64,000 nucleotides of DNA from Alphaproteobacteria bacterium (GTDB lineage Bacteria > Pseudomonadota > Alphaproteobacteria > RF32 > CAG-239), in NCBI GenBank assembly GCA_017626035.1, contig JAGAJR010000017.1, positions 4,900 to 68,899 of the forward strand, written 5' to 3'. The position numbers and the translations under genes are program-made. Below, in pieces: positions 416 through 54,968 of this stretch (position 1 is the first letter of the stretch; each line of letters starts with the position of its first letter). The notes below the pieces were generated by a model that searched no databases, was not told the origin of the DNA, and worked only from the letters and a program-made list of their open reading frames with translations.

Positions 416-450
416 AGGTTCAAACAAAAGTTTGTTGATATATTTATTAT

Positions 451-472
451 GGGGGTATAGCTCAGTTGGGAT
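451..472 (+). pseudogene. truncated 5' fragment of tRNA-Ala (acceptor stem plus D-arm only)
   Basis: 28-nt identity (ttattatGGGGGTATAGCTCAGTTGGGA) between 444-472 and 607-635; upstream copy diverges inside the D-loop. Confidence 0.6.
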
Positions 473-480
473 GGCTAAGT

Positions 481-505
481 AAAAACAACACTTGTGTTGT
501 TTTTG
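481..505 (+). terminator. hairpin plus T-run immediately after the truncated tRNA fragment
   Basis: AACAACA-cttg-TGTTGTT stem followed by TTTTT. Confidence 0.45.
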
Positions 506-613
506 TCTGTAACATCTTGACTACCTTGATTGAACAAGGGAGCGGTAGCGACTGCAGAGCAATTTAGGTACTCAAGGCGTTTGAACAAACGCTCGTTTTT
601 AATAAGTTATTAT

Positions 614-689
<76 letters not shown>

Positions 690-692
690 AAA

Positions 693-722
693 AAACACCG
701 CAATAGGCGGTGTTTTTTTTGT
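693..722 (+). terminator. rho-independent terminator after tRNA-Ala
   Basis: ACACCGC-aatag-GCGGTGT hairpin followed by T9. Confidence 0.85.
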
Positions 723-991
723 TTCGGTAGCCAATCAAACATCGCAAGGCTCGTTTTCTTGGAAGCGGGTCCCCTTAGAAACATAGGTTCACTTCGTTTG
801 CTGTCGCTTCACTTGTTTACCAATGTTGTCTAAGATTTTGCAGACAAAAAAGTAAAGCATTTTGCTTTTTTGCTTAGCAATTACCTCCACCCGGGTCAAG
901 ATCAGCAGAAACATGAAAGTTAAGGGGCTATCTTGCATTTGATAAAGTTTTTTGTTATGTTTAGCTCCGTTAATTCAAAATAGGTTGAAAA

Positions 992-4462: not shown

Positions 4463-5581
<1,119 letters not shown>

Positions 5582-5730: not shown

Positions 5731-6864
5731 ATGCAGAAATGGGTAAAGAAAAATAATAAATCGGCTAAGCCGGCAGTGCTGAAAAACGAAGATAAAATTC
5801 AGCGTAACTATGCCGCCATTGATTTAGGGACGAACTCCTGCCGTCTGGTTATCGCATCGCCGACACCGGCCTCGTTTCGCATTGTTGAAACCTTTTCCCG
5901 TATTACCAGACTGGGAGAGGGGATTATTCAGGATAACGAACTTTCGCGTCCGGCCATTAAGAGAACCGTTGCGGCTTTAAAAGTTTGTGCCGGGGTGTTG
6001 GATGAATATGCCCCGATTTACCGTTCCCGTTTTGTGGCAACGGCCGCTTGCCGCAGAGCCAAAAACAGTGCGGAATTTTTTGAGGTGGTAAAGCGGGAGA
6101 CCGGATTAAATTTGGAAGTTATTTCTTCGAAGGAAGAATCACGTTTGGCTGTGGTCGGCTGTGTTCCTTTGCTGAACAGAAACATTAAACGGACACTGGT
6201 GTTTGATATCGGCGGCGGTTCTACGGAAATTTCTCTGGCCAGAATTACCAACAGCGGAAAAACTTTTATTGAAGGTTTTGTATCATTGCCTTATGGGGTG
6301 GTTACGATTTCGGAAGCGTTTCCGGCCAAAGATATGACCACTTTGGCGTATAACACGATTATTGAACGGACGCATAAGCTTCTGAAAGATTTTGATGAGA
6401 AATACGGCATTTATGAGGCAATAAAAAATCAGGAAATTCAGATTATCGGAACTTCGGGAACGGTTACCGTTTTGGGGGCGGTGCATTTGAATTTGCCGCG
6501 TTATAACCGTTCGGCGGTTGACGGTATCGCCATTACCAAGCAGGATATTGACCGGGCAATTGCCAAAATCAAACGGTTGGGCGACGAAGGACGCAAGAAA
6601 CATCCGTGTATCGGAGCTCAGAAAGCCGATTTGACCATGGCGGGATGTGCCATTATTGAGGCTCTGTGTTCTTTTTGGCCGATTGCCGAAATTACGGTTG
6701 CCGACCGGGGCATTCGCGAGGGAATTTTACTGGATATGATGCATAGCAAGCCAAACCAACCGTATTCTCCGCATAAAAAGAAAAAATTTCATCATCCGTA
6801 TCATCGTGATAACCGTTTTAAACCTGCGGATAAAAACAGGAGCAAGAATAATAATGACAAATGA
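5731..6864 (+). CDS. Ppx/GppA family phosphatase (short form, with basic C-terminal tail)
   Basis: AAIDLGTNSCRLVIA and DIGGGSTE motifs of Ppx/GppA. Confidence 0.8.
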   Translation: MQKWVKKNNKSAKPAVLKNEDKIQRNYAAIDLGTNSCRLVIASPTPASFRIVETFSRITRLGEGIIQDNELSRPAIKRTVAALKVCAGVLDEYAPIYRSRFVATAACRRAKNSAEFFEVVKRETGLNLEVISSKEESRLAVVGCVPLLNRNIKRTLVFDIGGGSTEISLARITNSGKTFIEGFVSLPYGVVTISEAFPAKDMTTLAYNTIIERTHKLLKDFDEKYGIYEAIKNQEIQIIGTSGTVTVLGAVHLNLPRYNRSAVDGIAITKQDIDRAIAKIKRLGDEGRKKHPCIGAQKADLTMAGCAIIEALCSFWPIAEITVADRGIREGILLDMMHSKPNQPYSPHKKKKFHHPYHRDNRFKPADKNRSKNNNDK

Positions 6865-7801
6865 ATGTTATGCCGCTATTGATTTGGGAACGAATTCCTG
6901 CCGTCTGGTTATTGCCGACAATAAAGGAAATTATCTTTATAAAGATACCGTGGCAACCCGGTTAGGCGAGGGAATGTATGCTCAAATGAAGTTTACGGAC
7001 GAGGCTGTTGACAGGGGCATAAAGTGCTTTTGTGATTATAAGCGGGAAATGGACAAGTATGGGGTTTCCAAATATCGGGCAATTGCCACGGCTTCCTGCC
7101 GGATGGCGTCCAATGGTTTGGATTTTGTTCGTCAGGTTAAGGAAAAGACAGGAATTGAGATTGAGGTTATTGACGGTTTGGAAGAAGCTCGGCTGAATCT
7201 CAAGGGAGCTTTGCAGAATGTGAAAGGAAAATCCGAGTATGTCGTTGTTTATGATTTGGGCGGCGGTTCTACGGAAATTACGTTGGCAACCAATGAATCC
7301 GACCCAAAAATCATTTACAGTGTTTCTATTCCCTGGGGAGCAAGAAATTCCAGTGAAGCTTTTGACTTGGTGGAATATTCCGATGAACGGGCTGAAAAAT
7401 TGAGGAATGAAATTGCCGGATATGTTCGGGAGTTTGTTGAGAAATCACATCTGAAGGATTATGAAGGCAAGGTGTGTTTTGTGGCAACGTCCAGCACTCC
7501 GTTGCGTTTGATAAGCAAAATATATGCTTTCGGGGAGTTTGACCGGGAAAAGGCCGATGGATGCAAAGCTTCCCGCAAGCAGTTTGACGAAACAATTGCG
7601 TCCATATACAAAATGAGCCGTGTTCAAATGGCCGAAGATGTTTATATCGGCGAAAAAAGGTCGTTTATTTTTGTTCCGGCCTGTGTCATTTTTAAGACAA
7701 TTTATGACGGATTAGGCGTGGAGGAGTTAACCGCCTCGTTAAAGAGTGCCAAAGACGGAATTATTGAAGAATTGGTGGAGAAATATGGCAAAACTGACTA
7801 A
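6854..7801 (+). CDS. Ppx/GppA family phosphatase, tandem paralog
   Basis: YAAIDLGTNSCRLVIAD and DLGGGSTEI; AGGAG RBS before the ATG at 6854; 11-nt overlap with the upstream paralog. Confidence 0.8.
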   Translation: MTNECYAAIDLGTNSCRLVIADNKGNYLYKDTVATRLGEGMYAQMKFTDEAVDRGIKCFCDYKREMDKYGVSKYRAIATASCRMASNGLDFVRQVKEKTGIEIEVIDGLEEARLNLKGALQNVKGKSEYVVVYDLGGGSTEITLATNESDPKIIYSVSIPWGARNSSEAFDLVEYSDERAEKLRNEIAGYVREFVEKSHLKDYEGKVCFVATSSTPLRLISKIYAFGEFDREKADGCKASRKQFDETIASIYKMSRVQMAEDVYIGEKRSFIFVPACVIFKTIYDGLGVEELTASLKSAKDGIIEELVEKYGKTD

Positions 7802-15350: not shown

Positions 15351-15436
15351 GCGGCCGTGGCGAAATTGGTAGACGCGTAACGTTGAGGTCGTTATGAGCT
15401 AAGCTCATGGAAGTTCGAGTCTTCTCGGCCGCACCA
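15351..15436 (+). tRNA. tRNA-Leu (anticodon GAG)
   Basis: Type II tRNA with long variable arm, anticodon loop TTGAGGT, encoded CCA. Confidence 0.9.
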
Positions 15437-15507
15437 AAAAAGCCCCTCTGAATGAGGGGCTTTTTTGGTGCGGAGAAGACTATGACGTCAAAGATGTAAC
15501 ATTCGCC
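15436..15507 (+). repeat. 72-bp direct repeat copy 1 (terminator hairpin plus inverted tRNA-Leu 3'-end fragment)
   Basis: Repeated at 15657-15727 with 2 compensatory mismatches in the hairpin; contains ggtgcggagaagac, a near-reverse-complement of the tRNA 3' end. Confidence 0.8.
15437..15467 (+). terminator. rho-independent terminator after tRNA-Leu
   Basis: GCCCCTC-tgaat-GAGGGGC hairpin followed by T6. Confidence 0.8.
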
Positions 15508-15656
15508 AGAATAACTGTCGTTTATTTCGGCTCATTAACATCTCAACGATTGGTTCGCAAAAAATCCAAATCGTTGGATTTTTTTCTCCCAATTCTCGGC
15601 CGCATTGAGATGAATTGTTGAATCTTGCAAAAAGTGAAATTTATACAACCAGATTC

Positions 15657-15727
15657 AAAAAGCTCCTCTGAGTGAGGGGCTTTTTTGGTGCGGAGAAGAC
15701 TATGACGTCAAAGATGTAACATTCGCC
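15657..15727 (+). repeat. 72-bp direct repeat copy 2
   Basis: See copy 1; GCTCCTC-tgagt-GAGGGGC hairpin followed by T6. Confidence 0.8.
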
Positions 15728-26885: not shown

Positions 26886-26968
26886 AGAAGTGATGATTTT
26901 TTGAAAAAAAGTTCTTGACCTTTTGCGGGGTTTTGAGTAAAAGCTTTTTGTAACCATAATGAACATAT

Positions 26969-27067
26969 GGAGAGGTGGCAGAGTGGTTTAATGCAGCGGT
27001 CTTGGAATCGCAGATGGCTGAAAGCCCAAACCGTCGAGTATAAACGAAGTTTATGACGGTTTTCTCC
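26969..27067 (+). pseudogene. degenerate tRNA-Ser-like sequence (5' 36 nt identical to tRNA-Ser-TGA, rest divergent, no T-arm)
   Basis: tatGGAGAGGTGGCAGAGTGGTTTAATGCAGCGGTCTTG shared with 27090-27128; downstream part lacks the GTTCGAATC T-loop. Confidence 0.5.
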
Positions 27068-27092
27068 AAAATTATTGTTCATAGCACCTTAT

Positions 27093-27182
27093 GGAGAGGT
27101 GGCAGAGTGGTTTAATGCAGCGGTCTTGAAAACCGTCGAGGGTGCGAGCCCTCCCAGAGTTCGAATCTCTGCCTCTCCGCCA
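27093..27182 (+). tRNA. tRNA-Ser (anticodon TGA)
   Basis: Type II tRNA, anticodon loop CTTGAAA, long variable arm, encoded CCA. Confidence 0.9.
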
Positions 27183-27362
27183 TTAAAAGCCGTTTCAATT
27201 TGAAACGGCTTTTTTGTATTTAAGGGAATGTTTATGGCGGAGCGACTTACACGTCGCAAGGCTTGTGTTCGTCGGGCAGAGCTCGTCCTCTTGGGTATCT
27301 AGCTTCGTTGCGAAACAATAAGTTTCTAACTCAGCAAGATATTCCAAGAACTTGCAGATAAA
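27172..27362 (+). repeat. tandem repeat unit 1 (tRNA-Ser 3' 11 nt + terminator + 150-nt segment with 22-codon mini-ORF)
   Basis: 191 nt repeated at 27396-27586 with a single mismatch; period 224 bp. Confidence 0.85.
27185..27216 (+). terminator. rho-independent terminator after tRNA-Ser
   Basis: AGCCGTTTCAA-t-TTGAAACGGCT hairpin followed by T6. Confidence 0.85.
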
Positions 27363-27386
27363 AAACTAACGTAGGTTAGTTTTTTA
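27361..27386 (+). terminator. hairpin plus T-run between the tandem units
   Basis: AACTAAC-gtag-GTTAGTT hairpin followed by T5. Confidence 0.55.
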
Positions 27387-27395
27387 CTTAGCGTT

Positions 27396-27586
27396 CCTCT
27401 CCGCCATTAAAAGCCGTTTCAATTTGAAACGGCTTTTTTGTATTTAAGGGAATGTTTATGGCGGAGCGACTTACACGTCGCAGGGCTTGTGTTCGTCGGG
27501 CAGAGCTCGTCCTCTTGGGTATCTAGCTTCGTTGCGAAACAATAAGTTTCTAACTCAGCAAGATATTCCAAGAACTTGCAGATAAA
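27396..27586 (+). repeat. tandem repeat unit 2
   Basis: See unit 1; begins with CCTCTCCGCCA, a copy of the tRNA-Ser 3' end. Confidence 0.85.
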
Positions 27587-51867: not shown

Positions 51868-51955
51868 GGAGAGTTGGCAGAGTGGTAATGCAGCGGATTG
51901 CTAATCCGTCATCGTGAATAGCGATGCACAGGTTCGAGTCCTGTACTCTCCGCCA
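51868..51955 (+). tRNA. tRNA-Ser (anticodon GCT)
   Basis: Type II tRNA, anticodon loop TTGCTAA, long variable arm, encoded CCA. Confidence 0.9.
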
Positions 51956-51963
51956 TTAAAAAA

Positions 51964-51995
51964 AGCGGTATCCTTAATGGATACTGCTTTTTTTA
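51964..51995 (+). terminator. rho-independent terminator after tRNA-Ser-GCT
   Basis: AGCGGTATCC-ttaat-GGATACTGCT hairpin followed by T7. Confidence 0.8.
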
Positions 51996-52159
51996 TGTTT
52001 GAATGAAGAGACAGGCTCGAACCGAGAGGCTCGCTAAGCAAAAAATACAATGATTTGTATTTTTTGTCTGCAAGAGCATAGATGGTCTTATTGAGCAAAG
52101 GAAGTGTAACGACTGCGGCGAGATTAGAGCTCTATGAGAAAGAGCAGTGAAACTGCGTA

Positions 52160-52210
52160 GTCCTGTACTCTCCGCCATTAAAAGCCGTTCCTTTGGGAGC
52201 GGCTTTTTGT
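52160..52210 (+). repeat. displaced copy of the tRNA-Ser-GCT 3' end (19 nt) followed by terminator hairpin
   Basis: AGTCCTGTACTCTCCGCCATTAAAA identical to 51937-51961; followed by AGCCGTTCC-tttg-GGAGCGGCT plus T-run. Confidence 0.7.
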
Positions 52211-53819: not shown

Positions 53820-54968
53820 ATGAAGAAAAAGACTATCAAAAGAGGGCTAAAAACACTTTCGGCAGGATTGTTGCTCGGGGTTTCCTCTTATGCTTTATAT
53901 CAAGCGGATAAGTTTGATGTTAATGATTTTCCTCAAAAAGAAGTTGTCGTTTGCGGAAATAAAGTTTCTATGGAAGATTTTTACAGCCGCTTGTCGTATA
54001 CACGCAACGGCTGGGTTTATAAAACCGAAGACGGAAAGAACCTCAGCGTTGACAGCCTCAGTGATTTTCATCAGAAAGATTCACTGAATCATTTGAATTA
54101 TTTACAAGCTAAGCGAACCCGTAAAGTTGATACTGTCTATGTCAAGTATGTCCAGCAGAAAGACGGAACCAAGGAAATAATTTATCAGTTGGGAAGTTAT
54201 GACAGCGTAAATCGGCCGTCTATGGGAATATGTGAAAAAGGATGTGTTACAGTCAGGGAGTTTGTTGCGGAAGATCCTAAACTCCAAGAAAAGGAGGATG
54301 AATATAACGACGAATATAACCAAACTTATGCTCATGAAGATTGGCATTATATTAATGGCGTCAACGGAATAATGAATGTGGGGCAAAGTTATGAGGTTAA
54401 ATTTGTTGAAGTTTGCATGGATGAAGTTTCCGCTAATCTTCGTCAGTTTTTAAAACAAAGAAAGAAATATTTGGAATCCGGGAAAAATCCTAAATATATT
54501 ACTTCAAGGTTTAGTTTTTATCATGATTTGATTAATGAGGGAAAAGTTGTTCCTACAGACAAAATTTCTACCAAAGAGCAAAAACTTATTGCTGTCGGTG
54601 TTTTTGATGCCTGGATGAAAGACAAGTTCGACCTTTATTCATATAAAAATTATGAACGGACAAAGTTTATTCTGCTTAAAACAAATTATAACGGGATACA
54701 GGAAAATTCCGAACTTCATCAGAAGTTGATGACTAAGTGTTTTACAATTGACGGGATAGATTACTGGAAATACATTTCAGACAAAGAGCAGGAAGTCAAA
54801 GACCGGATACCTGAAAAATATAAGGTGCAATTTAATAAGTGTTTGCCGAAGTGGAAAAAAGGAAAAATGACTTATTTTGACAAGCTGGAAGAAAACAGAA
54901 ATGAAAAAGGGCGGACAGCTTATAATCTCTTTATGTTAAAAAACAAAATTAAAAATATGTTTCGTTAG
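53820..54968 (+). CDS. secreted Lys-rich hypothetical protein with HExxH motif
   Basis: Signal peptide LSAGLLLGVSSYALYQA; AHEDWHY (HExxH) with Glu 16 residues downstream; low GC; no recognizable family. Confidence 0.5.
   Translation: MKKKTIKRGLKTLSAGLLLGVSSYALYQADKFDVNDFPQKEVVVCGNKVSMEDFYSRLSYTRNGWVYKTEDGKNLSVDSLSDFHQKDSLNHLNYLQAKRTRKVDTVYVKYVQQKDGTKEIIYQLGSYDSVNRPSMGICEKGCVTVREFVAEDPKLQEKEDEYNDEYNQTYAHEDWHYINGVNGIMNVGQSYEVKFVEVCMDEVSANLRQFLKQRKKYLESGKNPKYITSRFSFYHDLINEGKVVPTDKISTKEQKLIAVGVFDAWMKDKFDLYSYKNYERTKFILLKTNYNGIQENSELHQKLMTKCFTIDGIDYWKYISDKEQEVKDRIPEKYKVQFNKCLPKWKKGKMTYFDKLEENRNEKGRTAYNLFMLKNKIKNMFR

Follow-up and report, generated by a model that had tools for sequence, protein, structure and literature searches.

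The question raised by this locus is why the 3' end of one serine tRNA gene occurs twice, the second time a short distance past the gene. The window, by which we mean the whole 64-kb stretch of DNA analyzed here, is from an uncultured gut alphaproteobacterium related to metagenome-assembled genomes that bear the labels Alphaproteobacteria, 'Candidatus Scatocola', and 'uncultured Azospirillum'. ARAGORN and Rfam find four tRNA genes in it, Ala(GGC), Leu(GAG), Ser(TGA), and Ser(GCT) (Table 1), and a preliminary description made from the letters alone claimed that all four have displaced fragments, which is the case.

Some features of the surroundings can be given at once. GC skew is positive in all 2-kb bins of the window (1-64000) and the long ORFs are nearly all on the plus strand, hence the whole window is on one replichore with its genes co-oriented with replication. 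The product of 4484-5581 is an N6/N4 DNA methylase that has a RAMA domain; of the ORFs checked, none is an obvious restriction partner for it. A pair of adjacent paralogous genes occupies 5731-7801, having 41-47-nt stretches in common at 83-89% identity, and the second paralogue (6806-7801) matches Pfam Ppx/GppA. The ORF that follows a CoA-transferase pair, at 53820-54968, has no Pfam match and is 100, 382, or 413 aa long depending on the strain.

An insertion at the end of tRNA-Ser(GCT)

The 25-nt sequence AGTCCTGTACTCTCCGCCATTAAAA occurs exactly twice in the window, and dinucleotide shuffles predict 0.00 matches by chance, even when up to 3 mismatches are allowed. Its first 19 nt are tRNA-Ser(GCT) positions 70-88, running from the canonical T-loop A58 to the CCA. 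The preliminary description was right that the second copy is exact; it placed the start one nucleotide too far along, at 52160 instead of 52159, and the distance from the tRNA end to the second copy is 203 nt and not 205. The same layout is found in ten contigs from independent assemblies of the same species at 98.8-100% identity, and because independent assemblies reproduce the structure, it is not an assembly artefact.

L011, the closest relative recovered, has an upstream ZIP protein 88% identical to that of the window, and both the tRNA-Ser(GCT) gene and the 28 nt before it are identical (the tRNA gene is also 100% identical in relatives L013 and L053). Directly after the L011 tRNA comes CTAAAAACCGTTCCTTAGGGAACGGTTTTG, whose orthologue in the window is the terminator at 52180-52207 and not the hairpin at 51957-51995. 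With this site empty in L011, the segment between the 25-nt repeats is an insertion, and the suggestion that the repeat marks an insertion at the tRNA 3' end is borne out. Since the distal terminator is orthologous to the one in L011, the distal copy and its terminator are ancestral and the intervening 222 bp came later. The two 25-nt repeats bound an insertion of 222 bp in the T-loop/3' end of the tRNA gene, one at its left junction and one at its right.

Table 1. Positions of the features discussed, numbered along the window
Feature	Position	Strand	Evidence or content
tRNA-Ala(GGC) gene	614-689		
tRNA-Ala(GGC) locus	444..892	.	5' fragment 444-471; B reverse 471-602; tRNA 614-689
tRNA-Ala(GGC) locus, downstream part			B forward 759-881; 3' fragment 882-892
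tRNA-Leu(GAG) gene	15351-15436		
tRNA-Leu(GAG) locus	15351..15727	+	terminator and inverted 3'-end copy 15437-15481; B 15468-15591
tRNA-Leu(GAG) locus, distal part			3' fragment 15593-15604; second partial unit 15657-15727
tRNA-Ser(TGA) gene	27093-27182		
tRNA-Ser(TGA) locus	26966..27586	+	B 27272-27395; 3' fragment 27396-27406; truncated second unit to 27586
tRNA-Ser(GCT) gene, intact; 3' end probably the regenerated target	51868-51955	+	ARAGORN; Rfam tRNA 62.4 bits
Proximal direct repeat: tRNA positions 70-88 plus TTAAAA (6 nt beyond CCA)	51937..51961	+	
Terminator hairpin T1*, brought by the insert	51957..51995	.	inverted repeat I2, 17-nt arms, 94% complementary
Inverted degenerate copy of tRNA-Ser 3' region, with linker	52004..52032	-	comparison by eye
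Core B, reverse orientation	52030..52152	-	nhmmer E=2.4e-25; cmsearch 107.9 bits
Distal direct repeat, displaced tRNA 3' fragment; tRNA-derived part 52159-52177	52159..52183	+	
Native tRNA-Ser(GCT) terminator, 12-bp stem	52180..52207	+	terminator scan; L011 comparison

The insert is fully accounted for by three parts, namely a terminator hairpin designated T1*, an inverted copy of the tRNA 3' region, and a core that we call B. T1* lies between an A-run and a T-run and could therefore terminate transcription in both directions. It is unrelated to the native terminator of the empty site in L011 and resembles the distal terminator of L053, another relative. The proximal terminator is not the native one, so that the insert brings with it both a new tRNA end and a new terminator, as genomic islands do. 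The inverted copy, which reads GGTTCGAGCCTGTCTCTTCA on the minus strand, has deletions in its acceptor part; CTCGAACC is an inverted match to tRNA-Ser(GCT) positions 64-71, and an inverted tRNA-Ser copy is likewise present in L053, L045, and L030. The B of this locus folds as hairpin 2 at about 52033-52071, with a terminator-like GCTAAG...TCTGCAA stem, and hairpin 1 at about 52077-52136. No promoter is found in this B copy, and the 197-bp interior of the insert has chance ORFs only, with no integrase gene inside.

The same site is occupied differently in other species, which was a comparison that the preliminary description recommended. Next to the empty L011, relatives L013 and L018 have a B unit in forward orientation, L014, L015, L017, and L020 have partial units, and L016 and L021 have an unrelated 188-nt insert with the same 19-nt boundary. 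This last insert, B2 (4953-5136 in both L016 and L021), has its own terminator, an inverted T-arm-like segment, hairpins, and the 19-nt displaced fragment. As that is the architecture of the B unit, the insertion route seems to take more than one kind of cargo. A nested arrangement is seen downstream of tRNA-Ser(GCT) in L017 (4940-5960), where about 770 bp with a 137-aa ORF of unassigned function lie between a duplicated B left end and a complete B unit.

A structured core at many tRNA genes

By profile HMM and covariance model, B is found in the 64-kb window only at the four tRNA genes, in six full or partial copies. Metagenome contigs scanned for B by exact pattern returned 33 loci. In at least 18 of them a tRNA gene is 250 nt away or less, and in several more the contig ends inside a tRNA. 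Counting the metagenome loci and the window together, ten tRNA types by anticodon adjoin B: Ser(GCT), Ser(TGA), Ala, Leu(GAG), Leu(CAG), Glu, Met, Gly(CCC), Val(TAC), and Val(GAC). B takes three arrangements with respect to the tRNA: downstream in the same or in the opposite orientation, and upstream in the opposite one. There are also arrays, of 1.5-1.8 copies at Leu and Ser(TGA) in the window (about 1.8 at Ser(TGA)), and outside it in L034, L045, and L051. Some copies of B lie away from tRNA genes: at L047 3200-3560, a locus shared by L035, L042, L043, L057, and L061, it is flanked by an imperfect local repeat of about 35 nt, and at L040 480-728 two copies face each other. No tRNA or Rfam RNA was detected alongside the B copies of either of these kinds.

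The B fold consists of a hairpin of about 60 nt and a second hairpin flanked by A6 and T6 and closed by GCAG/CTTAGC, the latter resembling an intrinsic terminator with a U-run. When 38 copies are aligned by fitting to a covariance model, 93.8% of cells are paired, changes on both sides are seen in 30 of the 36 pairs, and the covariation score is 0.49, versus 0.15 for shuffled alignments and about 0.07 with slid partners. An independent MAFFT/RNAalifold run gives the same helices, with 22 of 36 pairs covarying. The pairs include 71 G-U versus 26 A-C, and 21 versus 22 when two fixed columns are set aside; as the G-U excess is due to those two columns, constraint on RNA, on single-stranded DNA, and on both strands are not told apart. 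Folding of either strand gives similar z-scores, -3.6 and -3.1.

Known families do not account for B. Rfam 15, in gathering and E-value modes over the window and nine loci, reports tRNAs only and no family for B. A tmRNA or permuted tmRNA was considered, and ARAGORN finds none, while B is multi-copy. A decayed tandem tRNA copy is ruled out in that B is homologous across tRNA types and has its own two-hairpin fold. As for an integron attC site, alignments A4 and A5 show no R/L boxes (GTTRRRY core) and no integron integrase is nearby.

With B in hand, the proposal that a single family of element used both serine tRNA genes, and the Ala and Leu genes as well, holds up, and the basis for it changes. 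The preliminary description joined the two serine loci by the junction motif CTCTCCGCCATTAAAAGCCG, which is indeed at both; its exact matches are at 27173, 27397, and 52168, the one at 27397 having been overlooked. The 12-mer TTAAAAGCCGTT is exact only at these same three places, and the 22-nt identity between the serine loci is composed of 10 nt of common acceptor end plus TTAAAAGCCGTT. Terminator starts similar to TTAAAAGCCGTT, with an A-run plus GCCG, follow tRNA-Ser(GCT) in relatives. The motif is thus a common acceptor end joined to the start of a native terminator, and the real link between the loci is the B core of about 125 nt, which the preliminary description does not mention. A swap of the module formed by the tRNA end and terminator between the two serine tRNAs is possible but unproven, and the B cores of Ser(GCT) and Ser(TGA) are at 56% identity, not especially close.

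At Ser(TGA) the displaced 3' end is 224 bp downstream, inside a 191-nt tandem repeat (27172-27362 and 27396-27586, 99% identical, 224-bp period) that starts in the last 11 nt of the tRNA. Upstream of the real gene at 26966-27092 there is a pseudo 5' half of this tRNA. It is made of tRNA positions 1-36 and 38-48, with 23 nt inserted in its anticodon loop, and two other assemblies have it in identical form. After it comes a terminator-like hairpin that ends in CAGCCAT, similar to B's right end. Of three contigs retrieved for the locus, two stop about 110-250 nt short of the 191-nt repeat, at the pseudo-tRNA fragment or just ahead of it; the array breaks assemblies and gives no strain polymorphism.

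The recurrence of the unit bears on what the preliminary description took the roughly 200 bp to be, namely what internal deletion had left of a large island or prophage with an integrase. A displaced direct 3' fragment at the T-loop subsite is a classic island signature (PMC4383910), and one B array, in L050, is linked to an integrase. We nevertheless regard such a remnant as very unlikely, in that the terminator, inverted tRNA segment, and full-length B explain the entire insert, and the same complete unit is found at about ten tRNA types in several species, where independent deletions would not leave the same 200 bp. Nor does the insert have any match in phage and plasmid collections, and the B motif has 0 matches in viral contigs. 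The 19-mer is present in 42 viral contigs, always inside tRNA-Ser gene sequence (3 copies are cut by the contig end) and with no B near.

Boundaries, movement, and the route of insertion

Direct repeats of the local tRNA-end sequence, 11-115 nt long, flank nearly every B copy. If we write the tRNA end as 'a', the downstream layout in the tRNA direction is 'a', a terminator hairpin, inverted 'a', B in either orientation, a clean 'a', and a terminator. In forward units the inverted 'a' lacks 2-3 nt where the acceptor strand starts, and in reverse units its deletions are bigger. To the left of B, in the B direction, the forward and reverse Ser(GCT) units and the Leu and Gly units all have the reverse complement of the tRNA end as far as A58. 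The possibility that the reverse unit came from simple inversion of the forward unit was worked by hand, and the junctions it predicts differ from those observed.

The displaced fragments themselves break at few places in the tRNA. The boundary is at A58 for the reverse type of Ser(GCT) and for Met; at the T/acceptor junction for forward Ser(GCT) (74-88 or 77-88), Ala (65-75), and Ser(TGA) (80-90); at the anticodon loop for the Ser(TGA) 5' fragment (1-36); and at the D loop for the 5' fragments of Ala (1-21) and Glu (1-24). Tyrosine-integrase islands use three subsites in tRNA genes, the T loop, the T/acceptor junction, and the anticodon loop, and islands with 5' tRNA fragments are a minority, 159 of 3919 (PMC4383910). 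Most displaced-fragment boundaries coincide with these three subsites. Those in the D loop, at the upstream Ala and Glu copies, are non-canonical and count against an integrase.

A stop at position 58 would also be produced if the tRNA-end copies were made by reverse transcription of mature tRNA or read-through RNA, halting at modified A58, with insertion of the product together with B RNA. Canonical position 58 is indeed where the inverted Ser, Leu, and Gly copies all end. However, the complement of A58 itself is part of the copies, terminators and non-transcribed upstream bases are duplicated too, no reverse transcriptase is seen, and the A58 boundary is already a known integrase subsite (PMC4383910), so that we find this route barely credible.

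The reading that we hold with roughly even confidence is that the B unit is a miniature integrative element that has no integrase and is mobilized in trans. A complete unit comprises the terminator hairpin, the inverted degenerate tRNA 3' copy, B of about 125 nt, and the direct tRNA 3' copy. It may enter as a small circle or as a folded strand, and its tRNA-end copy would undergo site-specific recombination with the chromosomal tRNA stem-loop, as tyrosine integrases do for islands. The result would be a regenerated tRNA followed by the terminator of the unit, the former tRNA tail having moved downstream. The core sequence is present in the unit in both orientations around a hairpin, so that recombination at either copy should install B either way, and both outcomes are seen; on paper, a circle of 'a', terminator, inverted copy, and B gives both arrangements if either core copy recombines. 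The recombinase, which the unit does not encode, would have to act in trans. Among the points against an integrative element directed at tRNA genes are the B copies of L040 and the L047 type away from tRNAs, the small size of a circle of about 200 bp for double-stranded recombination, the mutual divergence of the copies in this genome and their fixation in the strain contigs seen, and the absence of an integrase near the units examined.

On this last point the search was as follows. No integrase is found in the window, nor around any unit examined to a distance of about 5 kb, there is no PF00589 in the annotated neighborhood, and Pfam scans of the unit neighbors and window ORFs give RecA as the sole recombinase. 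Transposase, Cas1, and reverse transcriptase are likewise not found near the units, which lie among housekeeping genes (gatCAB, ZIP, CoA-transferase, mutL, lpxD/fabZ, and others). The integrase or full-length parent element that the preliminary description expected is not found near any unit examined. The one suggestive case is the L050 contig, which starts inside the C-terminus of a tyrosine integrase cut by the contig end; about 115 nt after it there is a 17-nt tRNA-Ser(GCT) fragment and then a B array. A large protein search finds homologs of this integrase with PF00589, but only as 58-90-aa fragments in unrelated AT-rich contexts, and tblastn of the fragment against all loci gives nothing further. 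An integrase end beside a tRNA-Ser fragment means that the clade has or had integrases using tRNA-Ser(GCT); the helper is not identified by it.

A more specific version of the above, tentative and on the whole doubtful, is that each unit of about 200 bp is an attachment-site element complete in itself, which a recombinase encoded elsewhere would insert, as a folded single strand, into the loops of tRNA genes. By analogy, a structured B with two inverted tRNA stem-loop cores around a hairpin may act like integron attC or CTX attP. If true, this would account for insertion in either orientation and for the 2-3-nt bulge that the inverted copy consistently has at its T/acceptor junction, and it would be a new class of minimal integrative element.

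The main rival to an integrative element is a transposon-like one. B itself would be a miniature element, with an enzyme cutting on both sides of a hairpin target and repair duplicating that hairpin, in the manner of a Cas1-type enzyme at a CRISPR repeat. In L018, L032, L045, L046, and L052 the flanking repeats span the whole local terminator palindrome with 0-4 mismatches, for which target duplication is the simpler explanation. The repeat flanking L030/L045, L046, and L050/L052 is a 64-68-nt palindrome of tRNA end, terminator, and inverted copy, near identical on both sides; the upstream repeat at tRNA-Glu is itself a hairpin; the non-tRNA B copies also have local flanking repeats; and B is found in both orientations. 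Set against this, the flanking terminators of the window and L053 units are unrelated, with the proximal one foreign to the site, the repeat lengths vary over the whole range given above, the inverted repeats around B match the local tRNA and hence are not fixed element ends, and no transposase or Cas1-like gene is near any copy. We judge it quite unlikely.

Whatever the enzyme, comparison of the window unit with that of L053 gives evidence of movement. The two units are about 97-98% identical over about 170-185 nt, whereas the upstream intergenic sequences are about 75% identical, the adjacent ZIP genes 66% at the nucleotide level, and the two loci have entirely different terminators, proximal and distal alike. 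A near-identical unit beside a ZIP gene so diverged argues for horizontal movement between lineages, on sequence grounds. Within the window, the B copies are 38-62% identical to one another, and all same-species contigs seen carry the Ser(GCT) insert with no strain polymorphism; this divergence and fixation mean that most copies are old residents, with no current activity seen. The 'unusually active' tRNA-targeted recombination of the preliminary description is therefore fitting for one unit with recent horizontal transfer and not for the copies within the genome, which are old and fixed. Between the strain lineages L001/L004 and the window, the unit (51996-52183) has 0 substitutions and the 600 nt of intergenic sequence around it, within the 800 nt compared, have 8, small counts that may hint at constraint on the unit.

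Constraint of this kind might be expected if B never had a mobility system of its own, being a conserved structured RNA gene or a bidirectional terminator module of tRNA loci, with the repeats arising by local tandem duplication, fold-back synthesis at the terminator hairpin, and template switching. The strong base-pair covariation and terminator-like hairpin 2 are in keeping with such a module, as are the tandem arrays (Leu, Ser(TGA), L034, L045, L051), the contrast in strain differences just given, and the age of the within-genome copies. The orthologous L011 site is empty, however, and in other species it has different inserts or orientations; B is both upstream and downstream of tRNAs on either strand; a 98% identical unit is present in a species 34% diverged at the neighboring gene; no Rfam family matches it; and outside the two fixed columns the excess of G-U over A-C that a purely RNA-level constraint would produce is lacking. 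These considerations leave a resident module unlikely.

Comparison with known systems

If the miniature integrative element is the correct reading, non-coding elements of about 200 bp with their own terminator parasitize tRNA-gene integration, regenerating the tRNA as they do so. That would account for tRNA-fragment 'scars' with no island behind them, which island finders discard because they are without an integrase and too short. It would also mean that a poorly known group of uncultured gut Alphaproteobacteria has a structured repeat family of its own, and point to a very compact natural integration cassette with a recombinase worth finding. The units may serve as fine-scale markers of strain and lineage history at tRNA loci. 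A full-text literature search, though not an exhaustive one, found no description of such an element.

Islands and prophages in tRNA genes (Islander, PMC4383910) are alike in that the tRNA is regenerated, there is a direct displaced fragment, most boundaries are at the canonical subsites, and a relative has the empty site, with occasional 5' fragments and tandem arrays. Of what defines an island in Islander, the Ser(GCT) unit has the direct displaced fragment, the T-loop boundary, and the empty site, and it has no integrase gene. The unit differs from such islands in being only about 125-225 bp, with no integrase and no gene at all, and in what it has besides, a conserved core of two hairpins and an inverted second copy of the target.

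CIMEs, described in streptococci, are cis-mobilizable elements derived from ICEs that have lost the integrase; they have attachment-site flanks, no recombinase, and lengths in kilobases, and they are presumed to be mobilized in trans. The unit is like them in its putative attachment-site flanks, its want of a recombinase, and its presumed mobilization in trans, while it is ten to a hundred times smaller and has no known parent, where CIMEs come from a known ICE.

MITEs and REPINs share with the unit a small, non-coding, hairpin-rich, multi-copy nature and inverted-repeat flanks. Here, however, the inverted repeats are the local tRNA end, differing between Ser, Leu, and Gly loci, and the targets are tRNA ends. 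There are no fixed terminal repeats as in a MITE, the duplications are 11-115 nt, and the copies in 64 kb of genome are only 38-62% identical. Palindromes derived from IS200/IS605, which have subterminal hairpins and insert beside a fixed target of 4-5 nt without duplicating it, make a similar comparison, since B has hairpins near both ends, yet long flanking repeats are the rule for it.

The attC sites of integrons and the folded single-stranded attP of CTX phage are conserved in structure over sequence, with two inverted core copies around a spacer and a small bulge, and their folding could mimic a duplex target. The unit has this conservation of structure, the inverted core copies around a spacer, and the small bulge; it differs in having no R/L boxes, no IntI or attI, and no dif site, and single-strand recombination is for this unit pure conjecture.

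The pdif modules of Acinetobacter plasmids are short, have inverted recombination sites at their ends, are found in either orientation, and have no recombinase of their own; they carry genes and use XerC/XerD sites on plasmids. The unit is similarly short, bounded by inverted sites, in either orientation, and without a recombinase, whereas its sites are segments of chromosomal tRNA genes and it has no genes. On the favored reading, what is new here would be that integration into tRNA genes, itself well known, is reduced to a non-coding, structured unit of about 200 bp.
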